Source of the DNA: Methanobacteriota archaeon | GTDB taxonomy: Archaea; Thermoplasmatota; Poseidoniia; Poseidoniales; Thalassarchaeaceae | Direction: 5' to 3' | Assembly (NCBI GenBank): GCA_002730095.1 | Contig: PBZE01000044.1 | Location: 2,904 to 66,903, forward strand | Length of the DNA: 64,000 bases | Shown: in pieces, positions 48,052 to 61,749 of the stretch | How the letters are laid out: each line of letters opens with the position of its first letter | Numbering within the stretch: position 1 is the stretch's first letter | Notes under the pieces: model-generated | Seen by the model: the letters and a program-made list of their open reading frames with translations, nothing else | What the model was told of the DNA's origin: nothing | Database searches by the model: none | Made by a program: the position numbers and the translations under genes

Positions 48052-48453
48052 ATGGTTTCGTCCAGTCGCGGGAACACCAGGGTTAACCTAGCCATATCCG
48101 GATGGGCTTGCATCGTCATAGGAAGTGGAATTATTTTGAGTTCCGGAACTTCAGGATTATCACTGGCAATAGCGGCACCGATTTCCATCTCCGGCATAGT
48201 ACTACTGATGGCGGCAATTGGCATGTCTAACGAAGAAGGAATCAGTATTGAGGAGGTTCACGCTTGGTCTCCAGAAGAGGATTTACTTCCTGATGCAGGA
48301 GGTCCGATGTATAGGATCGACACAACTCTGATTGATCCAATCAGGACTACCATATTGTGCGGGAGGTGTGGTAATCTGGAGATGATCGAGGGCCGTCGAC
48401 CTAGTATGTATAGGTGTGAAATATGTGAAGTAGACTTATGGGAGGAGGAATAA
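48052..48453 (+). CDS. Hypothetical membrane protein with C-terminal zinc ribbon
   Basis: Two N-terminal hydrophobic helices, then CGRCG...CEIC. No family recognised. Confidence 0.45.
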   Translation: MVSSSRGNTRVNLAISGWACIVIGSGIILSSGTSGLSLAIAAPISISGIVLLMAAIGMSNEEGISIEEVHAWSPEEDLLPDAGGPMYRIDTTLIDPIRTTILCGRCGNLEMIEGRRPSMYRCEICEVDLWEEE

Positions 48454-48497
48454 GCCCTCACGGCAGTATCAAGTGGGATAGCCTTCTGGATAGGGTA

Positions 48498-49997
48498 ATG
48501 GTCGCTGAATTGAGCAACAACGACAAGGCCATGCTAAAGGCGATGCTTACTGATTGCGATAGGGATTGGACTGTTCAAGAACTACTGGATTTAACGGGCT
48601 GGAATGACCAAGTCCATGTTGCAGGGTCAGGAAAATCCCTCAATGAATTGGGCCTAGTAAAAATTACTGAAAATCAAGTCAAGCTCATTTCATTGGATTC
48701 AGAGGGCAAGAGGGCATTAGAATTCGGACTCCTGGAGAATAGGATTTGGGATTGGTTTCTTGAGTCAGAAATAGAAGGCCGAACAATGAATAATCTCTTC
48801 AAAGCAGGTTTTCAGAGAAACGAAGCGGGTCCCGGCATAGGCCTTCTAAAGTCCATAGGGGTCAATCTTGAATCCGGTAGACTAGTGGCGGCCGATGAAG
48901 AAAAAATATCTTCAATCATCTCCAAAAGAGCCGAATTCATCTCGTCGATTTCGACTGAGTCTACTGACTCATCAGATCTAGATCAACAATTAATACAACA
49001 TTTTTCTGGTAGAAAGGGACTAATATCAATCGAGGAAAGGGTTTCGCGGACATGGGCACTGACCGAAAAGGGAGCAACAGTCGATGTTAGTGAACTATCT
49101 CACGTTGAAATGATTGGCGAATTAACGCCCGAACTGTTGAAGGGAGACTCATGGAAGGGAATCAAGTTCAAGCCATTCGACATCAATGCTCCTGCAATAA
49201 CTCCAACAGGTGGAAGGCCGCATCCAATGCAGGCGCTAATTGAGAGGATCAGGAAGGTGTTCTTGGAAATGGGGTTCTCCGAGATAGAGGGAAATTTCGT
49301 ACAGTCAGCAGGATGGAACATGGATGCCCTGTACATACCACAGTCACACCCTGCGAGAACCATGCAGGATACGTTCTACCTCTCCAATCCCGAGAGGATA
49401 GATGTCGATGAAAGGTATCTGAATTTGTGGTCCAAGGTTCATGAGCATGGACATGATACTGGTAGCAGAGGATGGGGCGGAGTATTCGATAAGGACGAAG
49501 CCCAGAAAGGCTTGCTCAGAACACACACAACAGTCAACACTGTCAAGCATATAGCAGAGAATCCAGATGTTCCTTCTCGGGTATTCGGTATTGGCAGAGT
49601 TTTCAGACAGGAGACCATCGATAGGACGCATTTACCAGAGTTCCACCAAATAGAGGGAATTATCCACGAAGAAAATGCAAATCTGCCAATGCTCATCACA
49701 ACTTTGAAGACATTCTATTCCAAAATGGGATATGATGACGTCAGGGTGAGGCCTGCCTACTTCCCTTACACGGAGCCCAGTGTCGAGGTGGATATCCTTT
49801 GGAGGGGAGAATGGCTAGAGCTGGGCGGGGCAGGAATTTTCCGTCCAGAGGTTACTGAGCCACTCGGGACCGAATGGCCCGTTTGTGCATGGGGAATGGG
49901 CCTTGAGAGGCTTGCCATGTTAGTTCTTGGACTCACTGATATAAGGCAGCTTTATCAGCCCGATTTGGAGAAATTGGGACAGATGCCAATACTCTGA
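48498..49997 (+). CDS. pheS: Phenylalanyl-tRNA synthetase alpha subunit, archaeal type
   Basis: HPMQALIERIRKVFLEMGF, QSHPARTMQDTFYL, LRTHTT, FRQETIDRTHLPEFHQIEG and GAGIFRPEV...WGMGLERLAM (class II motifs 1-3). Confidence 0.9.
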   Translation: MVAELSNNDKAMLKAMLTDCDRDWTVQELLDLTGWNDQVHVAGSGKSLNELGLVKITENQVKLISLDSEGKRALEFGLLENRIWDWFLESEIEGRTMNNLFKAGFQRNEAGPGIGLLKSIGVNLESGRLVAADEEKISSIISKRAEFISSISTESTDSSDLDQQLIQHFSGRKGLISIEERVSRTWALTEKGATVDVSELSHVEMIGELTPELLKGDSWKGIKFKPFDINAPAITPTGGRPHPMQALIERIRKVFLEMGFSEIEGNFVQSAGWNMDALYIPQSHPARTMQDTFYLSNPERIDVDERYLNLWSKVHEHGHDTGSRGWGGVFDKDEAQKGLLRTHTTVNTVKHIAENPDVPSRVFGIGRVFRQETIDRTHLPEFHQIEGIIHEENANLPMLITTLKTFYSKMGYDDVRVRPAYFPYTEPSVEVDILWRGEWLELGGAGIFRPEVTEPLGTEWPVCAWGMGLERLAMLVLGLTDIRQLYQPDLEKLGQMPIL

Positions 49998-51963
49998 CAG
50001 ATACCACTGCAAGTATCAGTAAGCCTAGCAACTCCCCTCCCGGAGGTTCCGTGGCAATGATATCACCAATAGTGCCAGAGATCTCGGAGGACTGTCCGTT
50101 TTGACCTCCTTGGCCACCGCCTCCACAACCGGCAGGAGGAGGCCCTATTCCTGGTCCCCAAGTCTCACCATATCCGGAGCAATCATCATCTCCACCTCCA
50201 TTATTATCTCCTCTGGCATCATCAATTGAAACCTCTCCCCTGTAGCAATTGATGAAGTAGGGGAATCCAATTTCCCCTTCGCCATTCTCCCAAGTGCTGT
50301 GATAGTGATAAATTCCATCTGGATGGTCAGGAGTAGCTCCAAAATGCCCATTGCAAGAATCCAGATCCCCAAGTCCCTGAACATATTCGTAATCTACGAT
50401 TCCATTGTATCCGGTCTCCCCGTCTTTCAAACGATATGAGGACTTCATTTCTGAAATATTCCCCTCTTCATCCCATCCAACGAATCCATAAATGGGATAC
50501 CCATCGAATGCGAATCCAATAATTTCGGAATGTCTCGAGAGTGTTCGAGAAGAGTTGATACTGTAGTCCATCCATGTTTGATTAGTTTCCTCGTCTGGAT
50601 GCCAGTGGGCGCAGTTAGCGTCTGCATGGTAGTGGTACGCCCCTCCAGGACCTGAATGGCCGTGACAGATTCCCAACCAAATGTGTTGCCTGTCTTCATC
50701 ATAGGCACCCTCATGTCCAGCAACTGCATCTCCACCAGGGCCATCTTCAGGCCCGAAAATTGGAACCCCATTCACCGAGAAGGCCACAGAATCTCGCTCT
50801 GGAGCCATAGTGCAACCATCTGTTGAAATGGAAGGTTCACAACCTGTCTGATTAATTGGGGTGAGTGGGATAGTCCATTCAAGGTTCTGCTCACTCGTGC
50901 AGCAACCAGGTCCAGACTCTAGGTCATGGTTGGGTATCCCATTAGACTGAATTACTATTTCCGACTCACCTATCTCAAAACTCAGTTGACAAATATGATT
51001 GTCAGACTCAGTGGTATTGTAGTCATCTACCGGACTCACTTGTTCGGTCGAGTCACAGAGAAGCACCTTCTCCCACCAAGCCTTGGAACCGGTGCTATTG
51101 TCCACTGGTTCTTCGTCATATAAGCAGGATCCATCATCTTCGGTGGCATCCTCATCATAATTCAATGCGTTTTGATCCATGCATCCCAGTACTGGCTCCG
51201 GCTCAGTCTCGTATTCACAGGAGCCATCATCCTCTTCGGCATCATCATTGTAGTTGGTCGCCTCTGAATCAGTACAGCCAGTAACTATTTCCTGAACTAC
51301 TGTAATTTTCGTAGTTACCACAGAGGAAGTCTCGGTCCAAAGGCCGCATGTTGCTTCCATAGAAATCGTGGTATTTTCTTGAATGTTGGAGAGCTCCAAT
51401 TCGAAACTACCAGTATCGGAGATTGGCAGCCCAAGGCTGGACTCCGAAATATCCCCTGAGGACCACCTAAGGGAGCAGGTGTCAACATAGTCATGGATGA
51501 CAATACCGGAAATTGGTGCCGTCCCTCCTTTTGATATCTCCAGTGTCTCAGGGGTAATAGAGACGGCTGTATTACTCTCAGAGGGATGATTGATTGAGAA
51601 TACCTTGATGAATGTAGAATCCTGTCCAAGACTATCTGTGGCTACAACACTAACTACGTGACTTCCAACATCGAGATGCGAGATATCTAGAGATGCATTT
51701 CCATTAGAATCTAGATCATTATTCACCTGCTCATCATTCAATGTAATTAGTAGGGACAGGCCTCCCATTTCCTCATCAAATACTGTAATATTAATGGTTC
51801 CTAATTCCCCCATTATCATCGAATCGGGAACATCTGAATCAATAGTAGGAGCCTTATTTACTCCTTCATCTTCTATCCCAAAGAATAGTATCCCAGTCAT
51901 CACACTAGTTATCATAAGTGCCGCCAGGAATAGTGATCTCGCCGCCCCATTGTCTTCTGCCAT
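49933..51963 (-). CDS. Surface protein: N-terminal anchor, Ig-like domains, two Cys-bounded NY...DDGSC modules, YHYH domain, Gly-rich linker and C-terminal TM helix
   Basis: Two YHYH motifs (GGAYHYHADANC, DGIYHYHSTWENG) with NGIPNH and FDGYPIYG, as in the uncharacterised YHYH family. N-terminal helix LFLAALMITSVMTGILFF. C-terminal helix LLGLLILAVVSV. The 3' end overlaps the convergent pheS by 65 nt. Confidence 0.7.
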   Translation of the reverse strand: MAEDNGAARSLFLAALMITSVMTGILFFGIEDEGVNKAPTIDSDVPDSMIMGELGTINITVFDEEMGGLSLLITLNDEQVNNDLDSNGNASLDISHLDVGSHVVSVVATDSLGQDSTFIKVFSINHPSESNTAVSITPETLEISKGGTAPISGIVIHDYVDTCSLRWSSGDISESSLGLPISDTGSFELELSNIQENTTISMEATCGLWTETSSVVTTKITVVQEIVTGCTDSEATNYNDDAEEDDGSCEYETEPEPVLGCMDQNALNYDEDATEDDGSCLYDEEPVDNSTGSKAWWEKVLLCDSTEQVSPVDDYNTTESDNHICQLSFEIGESEIVIQSNGIPNHDLESGPGCCTSEQNLEWTIPLTPINQTGCEPSISTDGCTMAPERDSVAFSVNGVPIFGPEDGPGGDAVAGHEGAYDEDRQHIWLGICHGHSGPGGAYHYHADANCAHWHPDEETNQTWMDYSINSSRTLSRHSEIIGFAFDGYPIYGFVGWDEEGNISEMKSSYRLKDGETGYNGIVDYEYVQGLGDLDSCNGHFGATPDHPDGIYHYHSTWENGEGEIGFPYFINCYRGEVSIDDARGDNNGGGDDDCSGYGETWGPGIGPPPAGCGGGGQGGQNGQSSEISGTIGDIIATEPPGGELLGLLILAVVSVRVLASVPISPNRADKAALYQ
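51118..51276 (-). repeat. Tandem coding repeat: two ~22-aa C-x-D-x2-A-x-NY-x2-DA-x2-DDGSC-x-Y modules
   Basis: CTDSEATNYNDDAEEDDGSCEY and CMDQNALNYDEDATEDDGSCLY, separated by an acidic/Pro linker. These are aa 230-282 of the YHYH protein. Confidence 0.8.
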
Positions 51964-52033
51964 GTTGTGATGTATATTCGCTATAGCATATAATTGGAAC
52001 AGTGCAAATGGGTAAAAAAATCCAAAAAAGTTG

Positions 52034-53134
52034 TCACTCGTCCACTAGGGTAATCACATCTTGCAAGAAATCATCAGCATCCCAGTGGATTCCCGAATAT
52101 GCGACCCTCTTCCTCATCTCTTTCCCAACGATGAAAGTTGTTGTAGAATGGCCAACCTCATATTCTCCCAGTGACTGATCATGTGGGTCAGTTGCATCGG
52201 ATATTTCAGAATCTCCAGAACCTTCGATCACACATGAAAGCCAATCGCTACTAGGTCTTTCATATCCCTCATTGCACATGCAATGAGCGCTTTCCCCTGA
52301 GCCCATTATCCACCCATCTCCATTGCAATCGACCCCTGGTGGGGCCAAGCTAAGATTGGAGTTACTCGCAATCCAAGCCAAATGTGTATCTCCGCTGACC
52401 TCTATAGATGAGCTAGACGACTCTGATTGATTCCAACTCTCACTTTGTGAGTCCCAGTAGTGCAGAACCCACGACCAATCGCTGTCCGTACTCCAATTGC
52501 CTATTGTCCCCTCGCTAATCGGACCATCGCTGACTACGAAGTTCGAACCCGACTCGTTCAGTGAATCGGATATGAACTCTGAGCCGTTCATTCCGAACCC
52601 CTTCATATCTATTGTCGAGCTTGTGTTGTCTGGATACAGGACGACCAAACGATTCAGATTATCTTCAGGAGGCTGACTCGCCTCGATATGCTCGTTATCG
52701 ATAATTACGTTCCATGAACGATAAATCTGTTGAAGTTCAGATGCAGGTCCAGTGAGATGAGGCCATTCATAACCTCTGCTGTCAGTCCACTCCGATAGGT
52801 GGTTTATCGTGTCTCTAGCTGGGTCAATTGTCACGGATAGGATCAATACCTCTTCAGATCTATAGCCTAGATTGTCATACACATAATCAAGGTTTGAGGA
52901 TATTATCAAGCAAATATCCGGGCAGGATGTGTAGACAAAAGCAACCACAATGACCTTGCCTTGATGCTCACTGAGTCTAAAGGCATCACCATCCTGATCG
53001 AATAGCGTGAAATCAGGGGCATCTGGGGGGTCCCTGTACTCTATCCCGAGGAACTCAGGGTCTTCTCCTTGACCAAGACATCCAGATGAAAGAAGTAAGA
53101 ATCCGACGACAAATACGCCAAACCTCATTTTCAA
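52034..53134 (-). CDS. Sco1/SenC-family copper chaperone / thiol-disulfide oxidoreductase with ~170-aa insertion; lipoprotein-like signal
   Basis: KVIVVAFVYTSCPDICLI (CxxxC) and the distal EYEVGHSTTTFIVGKE (His ligand strand). They are separated by a Ser/Trp/Cys-rich insertion. N-terminal FVVGFLLLSSGC. Confidence 0.8.
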   Translation of the reverse strand: MKMRFGVFVVGFLLLSSGCLGQGEDPEFLGIEYRDPPDAPDFTLFDQDGDAFRLSEHQGKVIVVAFVYTSCPDICLIISSNLDYVYDNLGYRSEEVLILSVTIDPARDTINHLSEWTDSRGYEWPHLTGPASELQQIYRSWNVIIDNEHIEASQPPEDNLNRLVVLYPDNTSSTIDMKGFGMNGSEFISDSLNESGSNFVVSDGPISEGTIGNWSTDSDWSWVLHYWDSQSESWNQSESSSSSIEVSGDTHLAWIASNSNLSLAPPGVDCNGDGWIMGSGESAHCMCNEGYERPSSDWLSCVIEGSGDSEISDATDPHDQSLGEYEVGHSTTTFIVGKEMRKRVAYSGIHWDADDFLQDVITLVDE

Positions 53135-53862
53135 GACCCCTCCTCAATTAGAATCTTGATATCCTCCATTGCAAGTTCTACATTCCAGTCAGTATCTCCC
53201 CACCAAACCCTCTGCCTGAGTTGCTTATCCAGAATGATGGTCCCAGTAGTGTGATCGACCCAATAGTCCAGAGGATGATGTTTTACAGAAACATCTCCCT
53301 CATCACCTTCTTGCTGAGTTTCAACTCCACATCCATTATTGTCTACTTCCTCTCCTTCTGGAGTGCCCAAGCAAGTATCAAAGCCATCTGAAACCCCATC
53401 ACCATCCGAATCGGTGGAATATGTCTGAAGTCCAACATCGAACTCTAGCCATACACCCTCTAGATCTTCCACAGAACCTGTAAGATGGGGCCAATGAAGC
53501 CCCCTCTGCTCGCTGTAGTTGTGTAATACAGAGCTATTGTCCGTCCATGGGTCTACTGTGATGGTGAGTATCTCCACTGTTTCGCCATAGTCGTCTCCAA
53601 GCATATTGGAAAGATAATCCAGATTTGCACTTACTATGGGGCAGATATCCGGACATCGCGTGAATAGAAATGTGACCACAACTACCTTTCCTTGAAACTC
53701 AGAGAGCTGGAAAAGCTCACCATTTTGATCTGTCAGAACGAAATCACTAACTGGAACGGGGGGACTAATATCCTCGCCATAAAAAATGTCAGACTCGGAA
53801 TCTCCCATACAACCTGGTACCAGCAGCGTCAAAACTAGAAATAGGGCCATTTCTTTTTTCAT
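53131..53862 (-). CDS. Sco1/SenC-family copper chaperone with ~55-aa insertion containing a DSDGDGVSD calcium-binding-like motif; lipoprotein-like signal
   Basis: KVVVVTFLFTRCPDICPI (CxxxC) and the distal YWVDHTTGTIILDKQ. N-terminal LVLTLLVPGC. 4-nt overlap with the downstream Sco gene. Confidence 0.85.
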   Translation of the reverse strand: MKKEMALFLVLTLLVPGCMGDSESDIFYGEDISPPVPVSDFVLTDQNGELFQLSEFQGKVVVVTFLFTRCPDICPIVSANLDYLSNMLGDDYGETVEILTITVDPWTDNSSVLHNYSEQRGLHWPHLTGSVEDLEGVWLEFDVGLQTYSTDSDGDGVSDGFDTCLGTPEGEEVDNNGCGVETQQEGDEGDVSVKHHPLDYWVDHTTGTIILDKQLRQRVWWGDTDWNVELAMEDIKILIEEGS

Positions 53863-53863
53863 C

Positions 53864-54394
53864 TCATTTCCTCCTGATGGTGAGGGTAATAATTCCAAGA
53901 ACTACAACCAATCCAATTGGGGCCATGTATGAGTTCCCAACACTTTCAGATTTATCATTATCTTCAACCTCCCCAAATGAGTATCCAGAAGGGGGGCCAG
54001 ACTCATTGTGGACATCTTCTAATAAGATCAAGTTGAGGACATTCCACAGACTCGAATTGGAAAAAATCTCGATTTGATAGTTTCCTGCAGACCAGTTCAG
54101 AGGATCAAGCCAAAGTCTGCATTCATCCTCAGTATTGGATGAGTTCATACTGGTCGTAATACATTCGAACTCAGGATTTCCATCGGAATCAACATCTAAC
54201 ATTATGCTCCTATTATGGCTCGCTACGTTATAGAAAATCAGAGTGTCATTTTGCACCACTTCCGCAGATTCGGGCTGGAGGGCACCCTCTCTCATGATGA
54301 ATGAGAACGAGTTTGCACCATGGGCGGAAACCGTGGGCATGAGAAGAACAATCACTAGAAGAACTGTGATTATTCCCCCTCTAGGAGTTCTCAT
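53864..54394 (-). CDS. Small secreted cupredoxin-like protein with predicted N-terminal His after signal cleavage and a C-terminal TM anchor (paralog of 58198-58794)
   Basis: Signal IITVLLVIVLLMPTVSA then HGANS. LIFYNVASHNRSIMLDVDSDG resembles the first-His strand of cupredoxins. Two Cys (FEC...DEC). C-terminal helix APIGLVVVLGIITLTI then RRK. Confidence 0.6.
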   Translation of the reverse strand: MRTPRGGIITVLLVIVLLMPTVSAHGANSFSFIMREGALQPESAEVVQNDTLIFYNVASHNRSIMLDVDSDGNPEFECITTSMNSSNTEDECRLWLDPLNWSAGNYQIEIFSNSSLWNVLNLILLEDVHNESGPPSGYSFGEVEDNDKSESVGNSYMAPIGLVVVLGIITLTIRRK

Positions 54395-56367
54395 TGGTCA
54401 CTAGCCTCCGCTGTCCATAGTGGTGGATAATCGTACCTAGAGTCGCGATCTTCATCAAACTGAACTACATACACTCCAGAGACCATCTCTGAGATGAAGA
54501 CGAAACCTCTGGGGTCATATTGTAGCCCCCAGTCAAAAGGTATCATGCAAGACGCCCAACAATCGGCCATGTCATACCCCAGTTCAGTCGTGGGGTCCTC
54601 GATCCAATACGGTCCTGCTGGCAAGTAATAACCCAATGTGTGTGAAGGCGCCAATTCAGAGATTGCCTGGAAACCCCTCTCTGGTTCTGGAACGCCATTC
54701 TCCCAGACCAACTCGTCCCAGATGTGGCCATGGTCTGTAATCCAAACTCCAGCATGATAATGGGTCCAGTAGACATGCCCACTCAGTCCAGTATCGCCAT
54801 TGTGGGGGCTGAAAATATACCCTCCTGGGATGTAGTGATGAGGGTGTGAAGTTCCATCTGGCAGGGTACTCTCGCCTGGTAGCTTCCATTTGGAAACAAG
54901 GAAAGGCTGAGTTGGGTCAGTAGTATCGATAGTCCACAAATATCCAGTGTGATTGGTATTGGAGCCGTACTCCGGGGCGATGTAGGTGTAATGCCTCCAA
55001 TTGACGCCATATGTGGCATCAGAAGGTCCTATACCGCATTGTTCAGGCCATGTTTCAACTGGATCATACTCACTTATGCCGGAGCAAATCAGGTTATCTT
55101 GGGGGACCGCGTAGTGAATGTTGTCATTACCATCATTTGCATCTAGCCACACCTCAGGCGCCATGTTTGCATGACCTCCTCCCTCTGGGCCGTACCATCC
55201 GGAGTCATCCGTTGGGCACCCAAGCCATCTGCTAGTTTCAGGTGGCCATGAAATCCCCAGTGGGTCAGCAATTTGGGGCGGTTCGGAAACATCGACAAGC
55301 CTAAGTCCAGCGCCCCAGTATGACACTGCCAACAATTTTTGTTTGGTAATTGGATGGATGAAGAAAACATTGTCATGATTGAAAATGGACCCCCCACAGG
55401 TTGTCTGAGGCTCTGGCGTATACCCTCCCCAACGTATTATCTCCCTACTTGCGTTTTGTTGTTCTTCGTTGTTTGTAGGATTGAGTCCAGCGAAGTCTAT
55501 CAAGGCATAGAAAATCTGTGTTCCTTTGTAGAATGTCCCACTCGATCCTTCTACCATCTCTGGATAGGGGTCGGCACCGAACAGGAAGAGGTGACAGTCA
55601 TCTTGCCAAATTGCCGTTGGATTTGCTGGCGTCCAGTCGCAATATACATGCAAATCCTGATTGTGGAATCCAGCGGGCGGGTTATCCCATTCTGCGACCT
55701 TTATTGGGCTAGTCTTGTCCCCGACATATATCAGGTCTAGTCGATTTGCACCACTGTTGGCGTCATCATCATTGGGTATGGGGTCCAACTCAGAATTTGT
55801 CAGCTCATGATTCACCAAAACCCAGTTGTTATCAGCTGTGACTTTGATGTCTATCATTCTGGCAATTTCCGCGTAATATGTCGACAATAGCCTAATTTCG
55901 TTCGGCTTGCTGATATCCAGAATTTCGAATTGATTGTACGATGAGACGTAGGCGAAACATCCTCCCGTGCCGTCCCCATAAATCTCACAGTCATCTAGAA
56001 AGTTACCTTCTATGGCTATCTCCGAATTATCCCCGGGGGTTGGGCCGACATTCTTGAATTCATCAAGACATGGCCTACCCGCAACATTGTCTAGGTCTGC
56101 CGGCGGCTTAACATTGCCATCACAGTTCAAGTTGTGATAGTCAATCAGCTTGGCATTAGGCGTGGAAAGTCGATGTGCAAGCAAATCATTGTGTGAGTGA
56201 TTCCCATCCTCTATTTCTGTGACAGGATCTATCCACCAATCTTCTCCATCATCTCCTCCAGAGCCATCCGAGGAAGACAAGCAACCAGATAGTGGGGCCA
56301 AAATCATCAAGGAGGTCAATATCCATACCGGACGCACAAACATGAGCCTGCGGACTAAAGGAGACAT
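54391..56367 (-). CDS. Secreted LVIVD-repeat-type beta-propeller protein, histidine-rich (paralog A); lipobox LSGC
   Basis: Repeated strand motifs FEILDISKPNE, GLRLVDVSEPP, GVWITD and GVYVVQFD. Many conserved His are shared with paralog B. The start is set at ATG 56367, giving the signal MSPLVRRLMFVRPVWILTSLMILAPLSGC. Confidence 0.7.
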   Translation of the reverse strand: MSPLVRRLMFVRPVWILTSLMILAPLSGCLSSSDGSGGDDGEDWWIDPVTEIEDGNHSHNDLLAHRLSTPNAKLIDYHNLNCDGNVKPPADLDNVAGRPCLDEFKNVGPTPGDNSEIAIEGNFLDDCEIYGDGTGGCFAYVSSYNQFEILDISKPNEIRLLSTYYAEIARMIDIKVTADNNWVLVNHELTNSELDPIPNDDDANSGANRLDLIYVGDKTSPIKVAEWDNPPAGFHNQDLHVYCDWTPANPTAIWQDDCHLFLFGADPYPEMVEGSSGTFYKGTQIFYALIDFAGLNPTNNEEQQNASREIIRWGGYTPEPQTTCGGSIFNHDNVFFIHPITKQKLLAVSYWGAGLRLVDVSEPPQIADPLGISWPPETSRWLGCPTDDSGWYGPEGGGHANMAPEVWLDANDGNDNIHYAVPQDNLICSGISEYDPVETWPEQCGIGPSDATYGVNWRHYTYIAPEYGSNTNHTGYLWTIDTTDPTQPFLVSKWKLPGESTLPDGTSHPHHYIPGGYIFSPHNGDTGLSGHVYWTHYHAGVWITDHGHIWDELVWENGVPEPERGFQAISELAPSHTLGYYLPAGPYWIEDPTTELGYDMADCWASCMIPFDWGLQYDPRGFVFISEMVSGVYVVQFDEDRDSRYDYPPLWTAEASDQ

Positions 56368-56407
56368 ATCAAATTCCCGCTGTAGCGTTCGGCCCCTAAG
56401 GGGCCGA

Positions 56408-58144
56408 TCAAACCGAACCATAGGGCGCATCTATGTCCAGCTGAACAATGTACAATCCACTTGTGATGCACGAGAGATAGGTGTACCCATTATGATATTC
56501 CGCTGCCCATAGAAAAGGAGTCCAGCCGAAGTCATAAAATGAACTGTCGAGGGGAGTTCCATCCGCCCCATGTGGAAGGTGATATCCTATTGTAGACAGG
56601 CTATGGGCGTCAGTCTTGTTCCCTCCGGTCAAACCCTCGACCATCAAAGTCTCAATATCAATTACCCAGAGTCCGGCGTGATAACTGCTAAGGTAGATCC
56701 TACCGTCCCATGCCCCTCCGAAACTATTGTCTGGAAGTCCCGGGAGGCCAGTTTGGAAGATTTGAGTGTCAGCATTATGGGGGCTGAAAAGTAACCACTC
56801 CTCTCCTTCAGGGATGTGATGGTCCATTGCGAAAGGAATCTCCCAACCGTGAATTAACCGAGGAAGAAAGCGGAAATTTCCATTATTCATCTCATACGAA
56901 GTAGTATCTAATAGGTAACTCATACCTGTACCGACAGTCGTACTAAGTACTTCTGTGGCAACAATAGTGAGGTGCATTTTGCCTGTTGGATAGCCCAAAT
57001 GACTTGCATCGACCATATCGTCAATCGGTTCAGCGTAGTGAATGTATGAAGCACGTCCCCCATTCTCGTTACTAGTACAGCCACAGTCAATCTCGCCATC
57101 CCCGTCAAAATCCTCGAACTCCATCCATTGGCCCACTTCTGGTGCCCTCCAATTACAACCCAATTGCGTACCAAAAGATCCTCTACAAGCAGCAGCAATG
57201 GCTAGATATTCTGCCATGTCATTTCCAGGATGAGGGACGTCGGATACATCGAAAATCCTCAATCCTGCTTCCCAATAAGCACCGTAAACAAACGTCCTTC
57301 CAAATCTAGGGTCATTGGAATCCTCTCCCGGCCAAGTTTGAACCGTCATGTCATGTATGTATATCCATCCCCCAAGCGTCGACTCCCAGCTAACTTCGGC
57401 CTCTCCAACTTTCACTATTCTGGGGAGGTCCCCATATCCAGCGAAGTTTAGGTGGGCAACTGTTATTCCCCCGCATGCATCACCTTGCCCGACATCGCAT
57501 TGTTCGTAATCAGGGTTGGCCACGAAGATGTACCACTCGTTATCTATCATGTGTGTGTAGAGATTATGCGGGCCACTCGGGTGATCCGCGTCATACCAAG
57601 AATCAACCCAGCTCGGATTAGACTTGTCAGTAACATCAACTAGTGTCACGGTAACTTGTGCTGGGTCTTCCCATGAGCCCACATTGGGGTCCGCTGCTCC
57701 AGGGTCGACTAATTGATTCTGTACAATCACGTACTCCCTAGCATTGTATTGAAGATACTTCACATCCAAAACCTGTGTGTTGGGGTCATAATATACCCCT
57801 GTCACAGTTGTATTTTCAGGATTGGTGACGTCGACAATGTGCATTTCAGACCATCCAGCAATGTAGGCATAGGTCTTACCATCCGGCGAATCGGCTACTT
57901 GGACTTCAGCATTTCCCGGCGCGGTTAGGGGGTTGTAACTGATTGGAGCGATATTCTCTGTAAACAAGACATGCTGACTTGCATTTCTGTGGTCATGCCC
58001 TTCTGTCTGGATCAAAGGATCGACCAAAGATTCGGATTCCATGTCATTATCTAGTTCATCATTGAATAATAGAAAAGATGTTGAAATTGCAACTGCGATA
58101 CATGCGAACAACCCAGCCGCAACTAATGATCTTTCCAGGCCCAC
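56408..58144 (-). CDS. Membrane-anchored LVIVD-repeat-type beta-propeller protein, histidine-rich (paralog B)
   Basis: N-terminal anchor LVAAGLFACIAVAISTSFLLF. Strand motifs MHIVDVTNPEN, GLRIFDVSDVP, GLWVIDIE and GLYIVQLD. GTG start. Confidence 0.7.
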   Translation of the reverse strand: MGLERSLVAAGLFACIAVAISTSFLLFNDELDNDMESESLVDPLIQTEGHDHRNASQHVLFTENIAPISYNPLTAPGNAEVQVADSPDGKTYAYIAGWSEMHIVDVTNPENTTVTGVYYDPNTQVLDVKYLQYNAREYVIVQNQLVDPGAADPNVGSWEDPAQVTVTLVDVTDKSNPSWVDSWYDADHPSGPHNLYTHMIDNEWYIFVANPDYEQCDVGQGDACGGITVAHLNFAGYGDLPRIVKVGEAEVSWESTLGGWIYIHDMTVQTWPGEDSNDPRFGRTFVYGAYWEAGLRIFDVSDVPHPGNDMAEYLAIAAACRGSFGTQLGCNWRAPEVGQWMEFEDFDGDGEIDCGCTSNENGGRASYIHYAEPIDDMVDASHLGYPTGKMHLTIVATEVLSTTVGTGMSYLLDTTSYEMNNGNFRFLPRLIHGWEIPFAMDHHIPEGEEWLLFSPHNADTQIFQTGLPGLPDNSFGGAWDGRIYLSSYHAGLWVIDIETLMVEGLTGGNKTDAHSLSTIGYHLPHGADGTPLDSSFYDFGWTPFLWAAEYHNGYTYLSCITSGLYIVQLDIDAPYGSV

Positions 58145-58197
58145 GGGCTTCGGAAGGAGCAGGTCATGTTGAAGTCATCGCCCCTGCACGCAGGTCC

Positions 58198-58794
58198 ATG
58201 CGCGGAGCCGCGGTAGCCACACTAGCATTCTTGGTGATTCTAGCTATGCCCTTTGTGTCAGCACACGAACCCAAAGAATACACGGTTCTGTTGAAAGACG
58301 ATGGGCCGACCCCCAATGGAATTTCCTCAGGGATTTTAGTTTCATCAGATTCTCTCTTCTTCTATAACGTCGATAAGAGAGAAAATGTGACACATAGGAT
58401 CCTCATTGATGTTGAAGGAGACGGAGATTTCCAAGGCTTGGACGATATTTCAACTCCTTGGCTTAGTGGCGAATGCCAACTCAATGAGACAGGAGACAGG
58501 GTCGATCCCGATTGTCAAGTAACCAACCTACTATTGCTCGACCCATCTAATGGCTTGCTGCCTTCAAATATTTCAATGATCCATCAGATTGATGTCAATG
58601 GCACTATCGAGGAGTTTCTCTTTTCAGTCTCTTTCTCAGAAGACACTCACTCAGAGGATCAAGATTTACCAACCGGTCCATCTGAGCAAAGCGATGCAAA
58701 ACAAGATGGTGAAGATTTGCTGAAAACCTTACTGTTGCTGTCATTAGTAGGCATGTTAGTGCTTATTCCAAGATTCCTAGCTAGTGATAGCTGA
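58198..58794 (+). CDS. Small secreted cupredoxin-like protein with predicted N-terminal His and a C-terminal TM anchor (paralog of 53864-54394)
   Basis: Signal AAVATLAFLVILAMPFVSA then HEPKE. LFFYNVDKRENVTHRILIDVEGDG. Two Cys (GEC...PDC). Acidic linker. C-terminal helix LLLLSLVGMLVLI. Divergent from paralog B with a 53-nt spacer. Confidence 0.6.
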   Translation: MRGAAVATLAFLVILAMPFVSAHEPKEYTVLLKDDGPTPNGISSGILVSSDSLFFYNVDKRENVTHRILIDVEGDGDFQGLDDISTPWLSGECQLNETGDRVDPDCQVTNLLLLDPSNGLLPSNISMIHQIDVNGTIEEFLFSVSFSEDTHSEDQDLPTGPSEQSDAKQDGEDLLKTLLLLSLVGMLVLIPRFLASDS

Positions 58795-58958: not shown

Positions 58959-59783
58959 TCAATCGCCCTTCTTTCTTGCAATTTTCACGAGCTCAACAAT
59001 TTCCTTTCTCGCTTCATCACTATCCGATACTTCAGTTTTGAAAGCGATCCTAATGGGCCTCGGACCATTTTCGGTCATTGCGGACATTTCCATCCCATAT
59101 CTGTCAATACCAGTCATAGTCGCCCCAGTCGTATCTTTCGCCTTACTCATTTCCTTACATATTATGACCATTGCATCCTCATGATCTTCATTCATGTGTT
59201 CGATAATTCCGTCCGAGAAGGGCATCAATGGATCTGGCTCAGATGACCGCCAATCATTCTCTCCAACCCATGACATTCTCCCGAATCCACCAATATATCT
59301 TACAGATTTCACTTCCAATCTAAAAAAATGAAAATCACCAAAATCAGCATAGAATTTTGCATTTTCATGCTTTCCAATGAATATATCTCGCACTCTCTTT
59401 TTCTCACCATCAGGAACGATCTTGCAATCACCAATCAATGTCACTCTACCAAGCGCCAATGGGTTTTCGTCACCGCCTTCAGCAACTAGAAGTGAGGCTT
59501 TGGATTCTTTCATCAGATTTTTTGTATGCTCAGCTAATCCGCTAATTAGGAATATCGGATCGCCCGAATCTAGCGCGTAGGTTACGAATGAGCCATATGG
59601 ATATCCTTTGCCATCGGAGGAAATCGTGCATAATGTCGCAGTCCCAATTTTCTCGGCCAATGTCCTCGCCTGCTCAGCATGTGAGGATGTCGGAACATTC
59701 GGATCATACAATAGATCCTGCCTCTGTGAAGGGGTGCCCTTAGGAAGCTGATGTCGGGAGGGGGAATTATCTTCCATTGGCAT
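58959..59783 (-). CDS. PNPOx-like split-barrel plus DUF2470 protein (HugZ/HOZ-like putative heme-binding or heme-degrading protein)
   Basis: The N-terminal ARTLAEKIGTATLCTISSDGKGYPYGSFVTYALD..GDPIFLISGLAEHTKNL is a pyridoxamine-phosphate-oxidase-like FMN/heme barrel. The C-terminal IIEHMNEDHEDAM...GIDRYGMEM...IRIAF matches DUF2470. Confidence 0.65.
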   Translation of the reverse strand: MPMEDNSPSRHQLPKGTPSQRQDLLYDPNVPTSSHAEQARTLAEKIGTATLCTISSDGKGYPYGSFVTYALDSGDPIFLISGLAEHTKNLMKESKASLLVAEGGDENPLALGRVTLIGDCKIVPDGEKKRVRDIFIGKHENAKFYADFGDFHFFRLEVKSVRYIGGFGRMSWVGENDWRSSEPDPLMPFSDGIIEHMNEDHEDAMVIICKEMSKAKDTTGATMTGIDRYGMEMSAMTENGPRPIRIAFKTEVSDSDEARKEIVELVKIARKKGD

Positions 59784-59853
59784 CTATATCGCCCTCTCCA
59801 TACGTTTCTCATTATCGCCTACTATCTTTCTCTCATATCCAAACATTTTCTCA

Positions 59854-60642
59854 CTAATCCTTTGTAATTTCATCATTAATGAATATCCTGAGTATTCCAT
59901 CCTCGTCCACCACTTGCCTACTAGTTACCTCAAATACTAACTCAATATTTTCTGGAGTTAGCACATCTGATGGTTTACCATTGGAGACTATCTTTCCTTC
60001 GTGTAAAAGAATTATTCTATCTGAAAACCTCGAAGCTACATTAATATCATGTATTGCTATTAGAGCAGCCTTCCCATTTTCTTCAGAAACTATCTTTCTC
60101 AGCTCCTTCATGACTTCTATCTGATTTTTTAAATCAAGGTCACTAGTAGGCTCGTCGAACAAGAAAATATTAGGCTCCTGAGCTACGGCCTTCGCTATTA
60201 TTACTCTCTGCCTTTCGCCTCCTGAAAGCCTGTCAAATCTCCTAAACGCAAAATCAGTCAATCGCATTTTTTCAATGGTTTTACTCACTATCTTACGGTC
60301 TAACTCGCCCACGGACCAATTAATGTATGGCCTCCTGCCAAGAAGTATTACATCGAATACGTCCATAGAGAAGTTACTGGTTATTGATTGTGGGACGTAT
60401 GACATTTTCTTAGAAGTGGCAATGAGGCCTATTTCTCTTATATCCTCTCCATGAATCATAATCTTCCCTTGATCTGGTTCGAGAATCTTGTTCAGACACT
60501 TCAATAAGGTGGATTTACCCGCTCCATTCTTTCCCAAGATGGAAACTATCTCATTTTCCCTTAGAACAAAATCTACAGAATCAATAACCAAGTTATCGCC
60601 CCAACTGAATTTCAAATCCTCCACCTTCATGATTTCGCTCAT
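59854..60642 (-). CDS. ABC transporter ATP-binding protein, iron-complex/hemin/cobalamin (FepC/HmuV/BtuD) type
   Basis: Walker A GKNGAGKST, signature LSGGERQRV, Walker B IFLFDEPTSDLD, and IHDIN (H-loop). Confidence 0.85.
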   Translation of the reverse strand: MSEIMKVEDLKFSWGDNLVIDSVDFVLRENEIVSILGKNGAGKSTLLKCLNKILEPDQGKIMIHGEDIREIGLIATSKKMSYVPQSITSNFSMDVFDVILLGRRPYINWSVGELDRKIVSKTIEKMRLTDFAFRRFDRLSGGERQRVIIAKAVAQEPNIFLFDEPTSDLDLKNQIEVMKELRKIVSEENGKAALIAIHDINVASRFSDRIILLHEGKIVSNGKPSDVLTPENIELVFEVTSRQVVDEDGILRIFINDEITKD

Positions 60643-61745
60643 CAGTGGCCCCCCCTATTAGTTAGCAGCAGATAGATGAAAAGTGGCCCTCCTACAACTG
60701 AAAGCATCAATCCAACTGGGAGGACCACAGGTGCTATGATGGTCCTCCCGATGGTATCGGCTATCAGCATCAATAAGGCACCAAAAATAGCCGAGCAAGG
60801 TATTAACTTACGGTAATCATTTCCTATGATCAGTCTACTCATGTGAGGGGCAGCAAGTCCAACAAATCCAATCATCCCAGTGAAGGAGATAATCAAAGCG
60901 GTAAGTAGTGAGGAAAGTACGAGTATTTTTTTCCGCGTGTCAACAGGATCCACTCCCGTTGAAATTGCAAACTCATCTCCGCCTATTGATAGTGAGTTAA
61001 GATCCCATGACCATTCGAGAGCTTTAGGAACTAGAAATATGACTACTCCTCCGATTAGCCAAACTTCACGCGAGTCTACTCTGGCCAAGCTACCAAATGA
61101 CCAATGAGTCAATTGGGAGAGCTCTTCCGCAGTAGCAAAGTATACCATGGTCTGAACTATTGCTCCTGCAATGAATGTAATGGCGATACCAACAAGAATA
61201 TACGACTCCGCAGTAACTCCTCTTACGCTACCAAGTTTGATTATTATGTAAACGACAAATAGCGCGAAAAAGAACGCATTCAAGACCAGATCAGAACCTA
61301 CAAACGAAATTACCGGTATGGCCGGGATGATCTCTGTAACTACTGACCAGAGGACTGCTAATAACTCACTTACAAATGTCAAATCGAGGAAAATAGCGAA
61401 AGCTGCCCCCAACGCTGCGCCCGAGGCCACTCCCAGTGTCAGGGGAGATACTAGTGGATTTCCCAGCGCGCCTTGCATCAGGGCCCCAGCTACAGCTAAT
61501 CCGATTCCAGCTATGATTGCAAAAACTACTCTCGGAACTCTATACTCCCATAGGATCAGCCTCTGAATTTCACTCCCTTCTTCTATCTGAAGTAAAATCT
61601 TGGCCGTAGTGAGCATGTCAAGGTTGACTGAGGACCCCTGTCCCAATGCGAAAATCGCGATTACGATGGTGCATAATCCGAGAAGGAGAATTTTGACAAC
61701 GTGGTCACGGTTCTTATCCTCGTATTTACTTGATAGTGAATCCAT
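60642..61745 (-). CDS. FecCD-family ABC permease (iron-complex/hemin/cobalamin type)
   Basis: About 10 TM helices with RVVFAIIAGIGLAVAGALMQG..GNPLVSPLTLGVASGA and the C-terminal GRTIIAPVVLPVGLMLSVVGGPLFIYLL, typical of the BtuC/HmuU fold. Start at ATG 61745 (alternative 61787). Confidence 0.85.
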   Translation of the reverse strand: MDSLSSKYEDKNRDHVVKILLLGLCTIVIAIFALGQGSSVNLDMLTTAKILLQIEEGSEIQRLILWEYRVPRVVFAIIAGIGLAVAGALMQGALGNPLVSPLTLGVASGAALGAAFAIFLDLTFVSELLAVLWSVVTEIIPAIPVISFVGSDLVLNAFFFALFVVYIIIKLGSVRGVTAESYILVGIAITFIAGAIVQTMVYFATAEELSQLTHWSFGSLARVDSREVWLIGGVVIFLVPKALEWSWDLNSLSIGGDEFAISTGVDPVDTRKKILVLSSLLTALIISFTGMIGFVGLAAPHMSRLIIGNDYRKLIPCSAIFGALLMLIADTIGRTIIAPVVLPVGLMLSVVGGPLFIYLLLTNRGGH

Positions 61746-61749
61746 TATT

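Follow-up and report, generated by a model that had tools for sequence, protein, structure and literature searches.

Is the gene cluster described here an extracellular copper enzyme encoded together with its own copper supply, or a group of surface proteins with separate tasks? It lies in a 64,000-nt stretch of DNA (the window) whose source, a member of the Thalassarchaeaceae, belongs to the Marine Group II archaea, which rank among the commonest in the ocean. The seven open reading frames of the original prediction, which had placed two propellers in a copper-dependent system, were all found at the coordinates and with the spacings and domain assignments that it had given.

Five of the genes follow one another on the minus strand. 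The first, propB (56408..58144), encodes a seven-bladed LVIVD beta-propeller of the Sb-PTE type, and its paralog propA (54391..56367, with the ORF opening at 56430) follows after 40 nt if Met22 (56367) is the start of propA, as is probable, or overlaps it by 23 nt if the first ATG is used. The start of small1 (53864..54394), which encodes a protein with a cupredoxin-like fold, overlaps the stop of propA by 4 nt. ScoA (53131..53862, ORF opening at 53898) is about 1 nt away from small1 with a start at Met13 (53862) and overlaps it by 35 nt with a TTG start, and it shares a 4-nt overlap with ScoB (52034..53134). On the plus strand, small2 (58198..58794, ORF opening at 58078) is transcribed divergently from propB and encodes a second membrane-tethered small beta-sandwich; its start is probably ATG 58198, since the lengths of its orthologs (197-203 aa) support this position, and the spacer to propB is then 53 nt. 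The core unit is thus propB-propA-small1-ScoA-ScoB with the divergent small2. The earlier statement that all products are exported holds in that signals were present in all seven, but propB has an N-terminal TM anchor and no conserved lipobox. The propA product is a lipoprotein (lipobox LSGC, found in 32/36 orthologs), as are ScoA (VPGC) and ScoB (SSGC).

Both propellers are homologous to Sb-PTE, a phosphotriesterase from Sphingobium. Their Pfam LVIVD scores (propB 29.3 bits, propA 22.8 bits) exceed the cut-off of 20.2 bits, and the two are paralogs of each other (24% identity, E 3e-27). A profile of the propeller family matched 5hrm/5ioj in the PDB at E 1.7e-21, and 5hrm was also the best Foldseek match of the AF2 model of propB (pLDDT 83, pTM 0.86). 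Both entries (PDB 5HRM, 5IOJ) are structures of Sb-PTE, which in Sphingobium sp. TCM1 is a haloalkylphosphorus hydrolase (phosphotriesterase). It is an LVIVD-type propeller of seven blades, contains a binuclear Mn centre and is the one homolog with a solved structure. Its metal ligands, reported by Mabanglo et al. 2016 as E201, H258, H317, H389, E407 and H475, are indeed the residues at those positions of its sequence. As read from the alignments, propA and propB conserve a counterpart to every one of them (D127, H193, H264, H369, E398 and H456 in propB numbering); in a glocal alignment H258, H389 and E407 map exactly to propB H193, H369 and E398, and the other three land in the same blades as their counterparts. 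An SBP56- or NosZ-like nature of the propellers, suggested by the precedents first invoked for them, was rejected, with no Pfam match to either family and neither among the best 50 Foldseek matches.

The candidate metal centre at the hub of propB comprises H50, H52, H58, E80, D127, H193, H264, D265, H369, E398, D413, H456 and H489, all 13 of which are conserved in 92/92 sequences. It amounts to eight His and five carboxylates because an N-terminal HxHx5H arm and H489 add to the Sb-PTE-type ligands, and the description of the propellers as His-rich is justified by the invariance of these residues. The corresponding set in propA (H78, H80, H86, D194, H256, H352, D353, H439, E487, D502, H543 and H559) is conserved in 78-79/79 orthologs, and among distant family members the candidate-centre residues are at least 90% conserved. 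From homology, the histidines would be expected to cluster in space.

The main alternative to a copper enzyme, which we consider somewhat unlikely, is that the propellers are non-copper binuclear hydrolases (with Mn, Zn or Fe) which resemble Sb-PTE and cleave phosphoesters or other esters outside the cell to acquire nutrients. The Sco and His1 proteins (small1 and small2) would then serve other cuproproteins (cytochrome oxidase CuA, halocyanin, plastocyanin), and the adjacency would reflect co-expression of surface proteins. The profile match, the Foldseek match and the conserved ligand counterparts all argue for it. Moreover, since the one relative that has been characterised is a phosphotriesterase that depends on Mn, and its ligands are conserved, the histidines alone are no pointer to copper. 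Copper dependence of the propellers is in our estimate plausible, at somewhat less than even confidence. On the other hand, four conserved histidines (H50, H52, H58 and H489), which include those of the HxHx5H arm added by the archaeal family, are not among the Sb-PTE metal ligands. Where the alignment is readable, H489 corresponds to Ala in Sb-PTE, and H456, the canonical blade-6 residue, to Arg; the bridging Glu is replaced by Asp in the archaeal family. The sequence identity to Sb-PTE in the structural alignment is about 12%. The archaeal propellers are also a membrane-anchored paralog pair, and they are co-transcribed with Sco and His1 proteins, a linkage that has not been reported for Sb-PTE.

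The genomic context likewise points in both directions. The compact cluster described earlier proved to be conserved, with small2, propB, propA, small1, ScoA and ScoB colinear in 80 GTDB species-level loci; propB identity across these was 76-94%, small2 was divergent from propB in 80/80, and the upstream flank was variable. A propB relative is encoded by 221 species genomes. In the window PheRS and FolD flank the cluster on one side, and a HugZ-like gene and a FecCD ABC transporter on the other; because the synteny of PheRS and FolD, downstream, matches that of the cluster itself, gene order in Poseidoniales alone is weak evidence. No Sco, YHYH or small-protein gene was found within about 8 kb of propeller relatives outside Poseidoniales (seven annotated and about nine unannotated contexts), and these relatives carry the same histidines, as the hydrolase alternative would have it. 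The same alternative is favoured by two loci (L111 and L114) in which a solitary propA-like gene (69% identity), without Sco, adjoins a gene for a PI-PLC-like phosphodiesterase. Against it, propA, small1, ScoA and ScoB are translationally coupled, and Sco stays beside a propeller both in a rearranged locus (L105), where it still follows one, and in a more divergent marine clade (propB 73%, PheRS 59%) that has a reduced cluster of small2, propB, propA and one Sco. The earlier observation that no heme-copper oxidase subunit is encoded nearby was confirmed, with no cox motif in the 64-kb window or in 1.64 Mb of related loci; neither a cox nor a halocyanin gene was present near the cluster in any locus examined, and this too speaks against the hydrolase alternative.

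The sixth minus-strand gene (49933..51963) encodes a surface protein that has TM segments at its N- and C-terminus, Ig-like repeats in its N-terminal part and a YHYH domain (Pfam 121 bits, residues 362-576). Within the 70 nt that separate it from ScoB (51964..52033) the operon is likely to end and a separate archaeal promoter to follow, as judged from the sequence: immediately past the ScoB stop come two oligo-T tracts (T6 at 52029-52024, T7 at 52020-52014), which were found after none of the other operon genes, and a TATA-like element, TTATAT (51993-51988), is centred about 27 nt ahead of the YHYH ATG. An oligo-T run of at least 5 occurred within 150 nt past ScoB in 34/60 orthologous loci. 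Among 60 species loci spanning ScoB to PheRS, the YHYH gene was present in 48 and absent from 12, and its size was variable. It is dispensable, not a core member and probably a separate transcription unit, and YHYH has been predicted to be a metal-dependent (Zn) hydrolase (PMC7824862). The proposal that it is an accessory copper handler or electron partner is not supported, and a hydrolase as neighbour would fit propellers that are themselves hydrolases.

The two small proteins are membrane-tethered and, according to the models, have a cupredoxin-like fold. They are paralogs (32% over 79 aa, E 1e-10) without a Pfam family, and small1 had no sequence match in the PDB. Each has a Sec signal (...VSA|HGA in small1, ...FVSA|HEP in small2) and a C-terminal TM helix. 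The AF2 core of small1 (pLDDT about 90) was matched by Foldseek to 4hcf, 8vuk, 5fc9, CuA domains and EfeO, in agreement with the predicted cupredoxin-like nature, and the mature N-terminal His that had also been predicted is invariant. In small1 this His1 (H25) is accompanied by a CopC-like D127-x-H129 motif, and H25, N56, C92, D127 and H129 are conserved in 74/74 sequences; in small2 the mature His1 (H63) and D189-x-H191 are invariant in 87/87 orthologs. By analogy, His1 and Asp-x-His appear to follow the logic of the Cu(II) site of CopC, since in PfCopC His1, Asp83 and His85 bind Cu(II) (PMC7529816), although N-terminal His proteins can bind Ni instead of Cu (PMC12537917). CopC is likewise a small secreted beta-sandwich whose mature form begins with His and whose Asp-x-His lies close to the fold's C-terminal end. 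However, small1 and small2 have no Pfam CopC match, CopC was not among the best 50 Foldseek matches, a CopD partner is missing, and both are anchored by a C-terminal TM helix and contain a conserved pair of Cys.

The Sco proteins match Pfam SCO1-SenC (ScoA 91.8 bits, ScoB 88.6 bits), and their copper-ligand set is complete: C82-x3-C86 and H216 are conserved in 78/78 ScoA orthologs, and C71-x3-C75 and H329 in 71/72 ScoB orthologs. The PDB proteins that ScoA matches best are genuine Sco proteins; first among them is 2k6v, the Sco of T. thermophilus, whose CxxxC and VDHT motifs align with those of ScoA. ScoA has an acidic, thrombospondin-type-3-like insertion at about residues 162-198, and ScoB an insertion of about 170 aa with a conserved Cys/His/Met motif, C-x3-GW-x-MG-x4-AHCMC...C. 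Both proteins have a thioredoxin fold and also match Pfam AhpC-TSA and Redoxin, which raises the possibility, improbable in our judgement, that they are mainly extracytoplasmic thiol-disulfide oxidoreductases that form or repair disulfides of the operon's Cys-paired surface proteins and deliver no copper. Candidate substrates would be the closely spaced Cys pairs in the insertions of propB (C216/C224, C320/C330 and C353/C355), the conserved C78 and C92 of small1, and the four conserved Cys of the ScoB insertion. T. thermophilus Sco1, the best PDB match of ScoA, is reportedly a disulfide reductase while PCuAC supplies copper. Yet both Sco proteins have an invariant His as copper ligand, a residue missing from plain reductases of the TlpA or ResA type, the His1/DxH proteins indicate metal handling, and the reduction of client cysteines fits, and is usually part of, copper delivery. 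The Sco proteins have obvious other clients, because Marine Group II archaea respire and highly transcribe halocyanin and plastocyanin genes (PMC9723583); high halocyanin transcription in Thalassarchaeaceae (PMC9723583) implies a need for copper delivery outside the cell, in line with the hydrolase alternative.

With two His1/DxH proteins of the high-affinity type and two Sco proteins, all membrane-tethered, the module might also serve to capture or buffer the scarce, ligand-bound copper of seawater at the cell surface, the propellers binding or breaking down copper-ligand complexes or serving as scaffolds for docking, without being copper enzymes. A membrane copper transporter would be unneeded if the clients are outside the cell, and the upstream neighbour in the window is an ABC system of the metal or heme uptake type. 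This neighbour is not conserved, however, the strict conservation of the Sb-PTE-type centre speaks for a catalytic role, and such a function of LVIVD propellers has no precedent. We regard this explanation as quite improbable.

Copper dependence finds parallels in other systems. In NosZ, a propeller of seven blades, seven His surround the CuZ cluster at the hub; it resembles the archaeal propellers in its multi-His hub centre, its extracytoplasmic location and its need for dedicated extracytoplasmic copper maturation, but it has no sequence similarity to them, is absent from the best 50 Foldseek matches, and has a fused CuA domain and nosDFYL genes, which are not found here. The radical copper oxidase GlxA is mononuclear and has a Tyr-Cys cofactor; ECuC resembles PCuAC and binds through Met/His ligands, not through His1/DxH. 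In Streptomyces lividans, copper passes from ECuC to Sco and on to GlxA and cytochrome oxidase (PMC4736821), a route from a small extracytoplasmic chaperone through a Sco lipoprotein to a membrane-associated non-cox cuproenzyme; there, an operon that begins with sco and ecuc lies at a different chromosomal site from the client gene glxA (PMC4736821). The mtoX-SCO1/senC-mauG arrangement of the SBP56 Cu-dependent methanethiol oxidase is operon-like and widely conserved, and the copper dependence of mtoX was first suggested partly by its adjacency to SCO1, with His ligands proposed (PMC5739008). Its order, an extracytoplasmic enzyme gene and then a SCO1/SenC gene, is that seen here, in an archaeal host, with propellers lacking an SBP56 Pfam match, two Sco and two His1 proteins and no mauG homolog. 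The idea that Sco can supply non-cox clients accordingly has precedent in both methanethiol oxidase (PMC5739008) and GlxA (PMC4736821).

Taken as a tentative reading to which we give a little less than even confidence, the unit is a surface-anchored pair of paralogous seven-bladed metallo-propellers, copper-dependent and equipped with its own extracytoplasmic copper relay. At the cell surface, Cu(II) would be captured by the His1 proteins and handed to the Sco proteins, which would metallate both propellers; the Sb-PTE scaffold would here have become a copper-dependent, probably oxidative enzyme for an extracellular substrate, and the separately transcribed, hydrolase-like YHYH protein would stay outside this machine. 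The proposal is weakened because the characterised homolog is a Mn-dependent hydrolase and its ligand set (four His, two carboxylates) is the conserved part. The cluster is a good candidate for a novel extracellular metalloenzyme in abundant marine archaea.

The gene set and spacing of the original prediction were reproduced by the ORF table. The minus strand carries the paralogous LVIVD propeller genes propB (56408-58144, 578 aa) and propA (54391-56430, 679 aa), the small cupredoxin-fold protein gene small1 (53864-54394, 176 aa), the SCO1/SenC lipoprotein genes ScoA (53131-53898, 255 aa) and ScoB (52034-53134, 366 aa), and a neighbouring gene, YHYH, for a YHYH-domain surface protein (49933-51963, 676 aa); small2 (58078-58794, 238 aa) is divergent, on the plus strand. 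The propellers are paralogs (24% identity, E 3e-27), as are small1 and small2 (E 1e-10). Overlaps of 4 nt were found at propA/small1 and at ScoA/ScoB, and the remaining junction spacings hinge on the start codon chosen: a start at Met22 (56367) gives propA a 40-nt spacing, Met13 (53862) gives ScoA a spacing of about 1 nt, and Met41 (58198) gives small2 a 53-nt spacing. Ortholog lengths agree with these three starts.

Export of all seven products had been predicted, and a lipobox, Sec signal or TM segment was indeed seen in each of them. Lipoboxes were read in propA, ScoA and ScoB; small1 and small2 show Sec signals ending in ...SA, followed by H, together with C-terminal TM helices, and YHYH has a TM segment at each end. 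The anchor of propB is an N-terminal TM segment, and it has no conserved lipobox. A Tat signal in propA (RRLMF) was ruled out, the RR pair being present in only 5 of 36 orthologs. The predicted lack of a heme-copper oxidase gene nearby also held, since motif scans detected no cox motif in the window or in 1.64 Mb of related loci, and no CuA motif was found anywhere in the window. The cluster, whose genes have no annotation beyond domain names, is flanked by PheRS and FolD on one side and by a HugZ-like gene and a FecCD-type ABC importer on the other.

Both propellers were confirmed as LVIVD proteins by Pfam (PF08309), which scored propB at 29.3 bits and propA at 22.8 bits (gathering threshold 20.2); scores among distant relatives reach 68.7 bits. 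The AF2 model of propB (pLDDT 83, pTM 0.86) has seven four-stranded blades and thus the seven-bladed propeller fold, and Foldseek searches of the PDB with this model placed 5hrm, the haloalkylphosphorus hydrolase (phosphotriesterase) of Sphingobium sp. TCM1 (Sb-PTE), at the top (E 5.7e-11), followed by generic seven-bladed propellers. Single-sequence PDB searches with propB and propA returned nothing significant; Sb-PTE (5hrm/5ioj) was found only by the family profile, of which it was the one matching solved structure (E 1.7e-21). Nitrous-oxide reductase (NosZ) and SBP56 had been offered as precedents for these propellers, an analogy that had to be given up: SBP56 (PF05694) gave no match at E <= 0.1 for either propeller, NosZ gave none in Pfam, NCBIfam or PDB sequences, and neither was among the Foldseek top 50. 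NosZ-, thiocyanate-dehydrogenase- and SBP56-like identities were all considered and are unsupported by Pfam and the Foldseek top 50.

The propeller family is narrow. Searched exhaustively at E <= 1e-3, 1.84 billion representative proteins yielded 177 matches, many of them ortholog fragments; among the remainder are full-length LVIVD proteins, about 450-520 aa long, with 25-39% identity. The closest full-length relative found outside the cluster of the Marine Group II type is P0174 (L007:2-5202, 39% identical to propB), whose gene is one of two or three LVIVD propeller genes in tandem, separated by a SnoaL-like gene, so tandem duplication of the propeller recurs.

When 23 diverse members were aligned, the invariant or nearly invariant residues were H50, H52, H58, D127, H193, H264-D265, H369, E398, D413, H456 and H489 (propB numbering), in the contexts HxHxxxxxH after the lipobox (H50/H52/H58), GxHN (H193), HD (H264-D265), H...PE (H369, E398), SPHN (H456) and YHAG (H489). 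The same residues and E80 are conserved in 92 of 92 propB and in 78-79 of 79 propA orthologs of Poseidoniales. The metal ligands of Sb-PTE, which we take to be E201, H258, H317, H389, E407 and H475, reportedly form the binuclear Mn centre described by Mabanglo et al. in 2016, with E201 bridging the metals, H389, H475 and E407 on one metal and H258 and H317 on the other. Residues 172-573 of Sb-PTE, rebuilt from HMMER output, have Glu or His at all six of these positions. The mapping of ligands was based on glocal hmmalign alignment and LVIVD strand counts, as MAFFT --add placed Sb-PTE inconsistently. Sb-PTE and the archaeal propellers have seven LVIVD strands each and matching C-termini, and the colinear register is therefore the natural one; the best local alignments slipped by one or two blades, as is to be expected of repeats. 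In the glocal alignment H258, H389 and E407 of Sb-PTE share exact columns with H193, H369 and E398 of propB, and E201 lies 2-3 residues off D127. H317 and propB H264 match at the level of the motif (PHEVSIS against IHDMTVQ), and H475 and propB H456 lie in the same blade but in different columns, Sb-PTE having Arg at the canonical position. The archaeal propellers differ from Sb-PTE in an added N-terminal arm of three His and in H489, where Sb-PTE has Ala. These alignments lead us to regard the His, Asp and Glu residues conserved in propA and propB as probable homologs, in kind and position, of a real hub metal centre, that of Sb-PTE.

The "cupredoxin-like" character ascribed to the small proteins was supported for small1 by its AF2 model (core pLDDT about 90). 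Foldseek matched the model to a B. anthracis Cupredoxin_1 protein with bound Cu (4hcf; E 3.8e-6, target-normalised TM-score 0.65-0.72) and to Brucella FtrB (8vuk; target-normalised TM-score 0.74), and also to the Nitrosopumilus purple cupredoxin (5fc9), CuA domains, plastocyanin and the EfeO N-terminal domain. The type-1 Cys-His-Met loop is absent from small1, whose invariant residues are H25, D50, N56, C92 (with C78), D127 and H129; as modelled, the protein fits the cupredoxin fold but not the type-1 blue copper ligand set. A His as first mature residue and an Asp-x-His directly after the last strand are each invariant in small1 (74/74) and small2 (87/87). In PfCopC, Cu(II) is bound by His1, Asp83 and His85 (PMC7529816), and judged on the motif the small proteins share with CopC this ligand logic of a Cu(II) site. 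They fall outside CopC (PF04234) as a family, with no Pfam match at E <= 0.1, no PDB sequence match and no CopC in the Foldseek top 50; a PDB search with the small-protein profile likewise gave nothing significant. Secreted His1 proteins can alternatively bind nickel (PMC12537917). Relatives were seen only in Poseidoniales (34 clusters with a single-sequence query, 321 with a profile), without names or Pfam matches, and small1 and small2 define a Poseidoniales-specific His1/DxH family.

The two Sco1/SenC assignments of the original prediction stand, PF02630 being matched by ScoA (91.8 bits) and ScoB (88.6 bits). CPDIC and a distal His (VDHT in ScoA, GHST in ScoB) are present in both, and the C, C and H ligands are kept in 78/78 ScoA and 71/72 ScoB orthologs. 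Among solved structures, ScoA is closest to T. thermophilus Sco, Bradyrhizobium ScoI and yeast/human SCO1, with the motifs aligned. ScoA carries at residues ~162-198 an acidic insertion, DSDGDGVSDGFDTC...NNGCG, which resembles a calcium-binding thrombospondin type-3 repeat and gave weak Pfam TSP_3 and NCBIfam PA1041-anchor matches. In ScoB an insertion of about 170 aa (residues ~150-320) separates the Sco core from the copper-ligand His; its motif C-x3-GW-x-MG-x4-AHCMC...C is conserved across orthologs, with DCNGDGW in the window and DCNGHGW in most orthologs, and may represent a disulfide knot or an additional metal site. Two lesser alternatives bear on these accessory genes. The Sco proteins, with their intact copper ligands, might act as disulfide oxidoreductases, which we consider improbable, and we regard as more improbable still that the genes form a copper-capture module of which the propellers are not clients.

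When GTDB was scanned with one genome for each species, using the narrower propeller alignment A3 because the broader A2 was too diverse, a propB relative was found in 221 species genomes. The best 80 of these (76-94% identity) are all Poseidoniales, close Thalassarchaeaceae, and tblastn of the seven proteins against these 80 loci showed the order small2(-), propB, propA, small1, ScoA, ScoB wherever the contig was long enough. Judged on the full cluster in these best 80 of 221 loci, the operon appears widespread in Poseidoniales. The order alone is weak evidence, since PheRS and FolD downstream are as syntenic as the cluster itself. The upstream flank differs among genomes, with a TSP3 protein in locus L001, integrases in L004 and the ABC system in the window, and the boundary of the unit was therefore placed at small2.

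Several features of these flanks may be recorded. Upstream of the small2 homolog in L004 (1-5435), on a 1.68-Mb Marine Group II scaffold, lie two phage-type integrase genes, a GIY-YIG gene and a DUF4379/zinc-finger gene, so that the cluster boundary there may be a hot spot of integration. Directly upstream of small2 in the window (58959-62844, minus strand) lies a CREG/PNPOx-like gene with DUF2470 (HugZ-like, of the heme-utilisation type); beyond it, an ABC ATPase, a FecCD permease and a Peripla_BP_2 binding protein make up an importer of the iron, heme or cobalamin type. This flank occurs in few related genomes, the 274-aa ORF at 58959-59783 being present in 6 of 80 loci. Between FolD and PheRS, a 133-aa ORF (48052-48453, plus strand) has N-terminal TM segments, a C-terminal CxxC...CxxC zinc-ribbon-like motif and no Pfam match; genes of similar size (125-140 aa), also without Pfam match, occupy this position in L001-L005.

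Four kinds of context were obtained from a metagenome scan with distant propellers as queries, followed by HMM searches and tblastn on the loci. A more divergent marine clade (propB 73%, propA 70%, PheRS 59%) has small2(-), propB, propA, a single ScoA-like Sco and YHYH; in one locus of this clade (L115, 4811-9369) PheRS is inserted between Sco and YHYH. Locus L105 (1-4977), another variant from a divergent marine clade, is rearranged to propA, small2(-), propB and Sco. In L111 (3348-6454) and L114, variants likewise from such a clade, a lone propA-like gene is preceded by a PI-PLC-C1 gene, of the Ca-dependent phospholipase C-like kind, and followed by an MMPL transporter. Propellers occur singly in high-GC soil loci, where Sco, YHYH and small proteins were all absent within 8 kb, and no copper-related neighbour was seen in seven annotated contexts of distant propeller relatives; the contexts of soil and distant relatives were read from pre-called genes. 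The propeller-Sco link therefore extends through the order Poseidoniales, but the propeller family at large does not share it. These contexts bear on the main rival explanation, namely that the propellers, like Sb-PTE, are hydrolases (using Mn, Zn or Fe) and that cytochrome oxidase and the strongly transcribed halocyanin/plastocyanin (PMC9723583) are what the copper genes supply. The ligand homology to Sb-PTE, the distant relatives without adjoining Sco and the position of the lone propA beside a phosphodiesterase-like gene all speak for it, and we consider it a serious if rather unlikely explanation.

The YHYH domain had also been called correctly, PF14240 being matched over the whole profile (positions 1-193) with 121 bits and with both motifs, AYHYHA and IYHYHS, present; a single-sequence PDB search gave nothing significant. 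Of the 60 loci spanning the interval from ScoB to PheRS, 48 have YHYH there, with an approximately threefold variation in size; it is missing from the other 12, in which ScoB ends 12-280 nt from PheRS. In the window, T6 and T7 tracts follow directly after the ScoB stop (51964-52033), and the YHYH ATG has a TTATAT centred some 27 nt ahead of it. Archaeal transcription terminates at oligo-T and uses a TATA box at about -27, so these elements fit the end of one transcript and a separate, leaderless YHYH transcript. A sigma-70 promoter/terminator scan, uninformative for an archaeon, gave 17 sites against 16.4 expected. Since YHYH has a promoter-like element to itself and is lacking in one species out of five, it is regarded as a neighbour, and not as the accessory copper handler that had been proposed. 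A His3-Asp Zn site and hydrolase activity were predicted for the YHYH domain by Iyer and colleagues (PMC7824862). Between the N-terminal Ig-like part and the YHYH domain (51100-51250, residues ~227-280) there are tandem Cys-bracketed acidic motifs, CTDSEATNYNDDAEEDDGSCEYE and CMDQNALNYDEDATEDDGSCLYD, and the 3' end of the gene overlaps convergently by 65 nt (49933-49997) with that of the PheRS alpha-subunit gene (plus strand, 48438-49997).

The explanation that we favour, although tentatively and at somewhat less than even chances, is that the six-gene unit is a surface pair of Sb-PTE-type metallo-propellers with a dedicated copper relay. The His1/DxH proteins would hand copper to Sco, and Sco would hand it to the propellers. 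The compact operon, its order-wide conservation, the intact Sco copper ligands, the CopC-like motif and the invariant hub residues of both propellers are observed; the direction of transfer, the propellers as clients and the oxidative chemistry are what we infer, and the copper assignment of the propellers is circumstantial. Sco proteins serving enzymes other than cox have precedents in the mtoX-SCO1-mauG operon (PMC5739008) and in the maturation of GlxA by Sco with ECuC (PMC4736821). A more specific version of the relay is doubtful in our estimate: an Sb-PTE-type scaffold turned into a new polynuclear copper centre (eight His, five carboxylates, and the N-terminal HxHx5H arm as a cap) would be loaded extracellularly by a lineage-specific relay made up of CopC-like His1 proteins and two specialised Sco proteins, and would work as a surface copper oxidase on an abundant dissolved or particulate substrate.

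We rate the cluster as a putative Sco-linked extracytoplasmic metalloenzyme operon. Known families (LVIVD/Sb-PTE, SCO1/SenC, YHYH) or a known fold (cupredoxin) account for all its parts. The combination, the pairing of propellers that have an extended centre of eight His and the His1/DxH small-protein family are undescribed in the literature searched, and searches on LVIVD with copper, LVIVD alone and YHYH returned no functional study of the cluster. The Marine Group II archaea (Poseidoniales) rank with the most abundant archaea of the plankton and are uncultured, and their surface action on organic matter is largely inferred. Under either explanation, hydrolase or copper enzyme, the His1/DxH family is directly testable for Cu(II) binding. 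Sb-PTE degrades flame retardants, and to our knowledge its native function is unknown; should the propellers prove to be Mn or Zn hydrolases, the Sb-PTE family would have natural representatives in them, and they would be candidates for marine organophosphate turnover. If they are copper enzymes, they would represent a new copper centre on a hydrolase scaffold and a new Sco client, and would link oceanic copper availability to archaeal heterotrophy.
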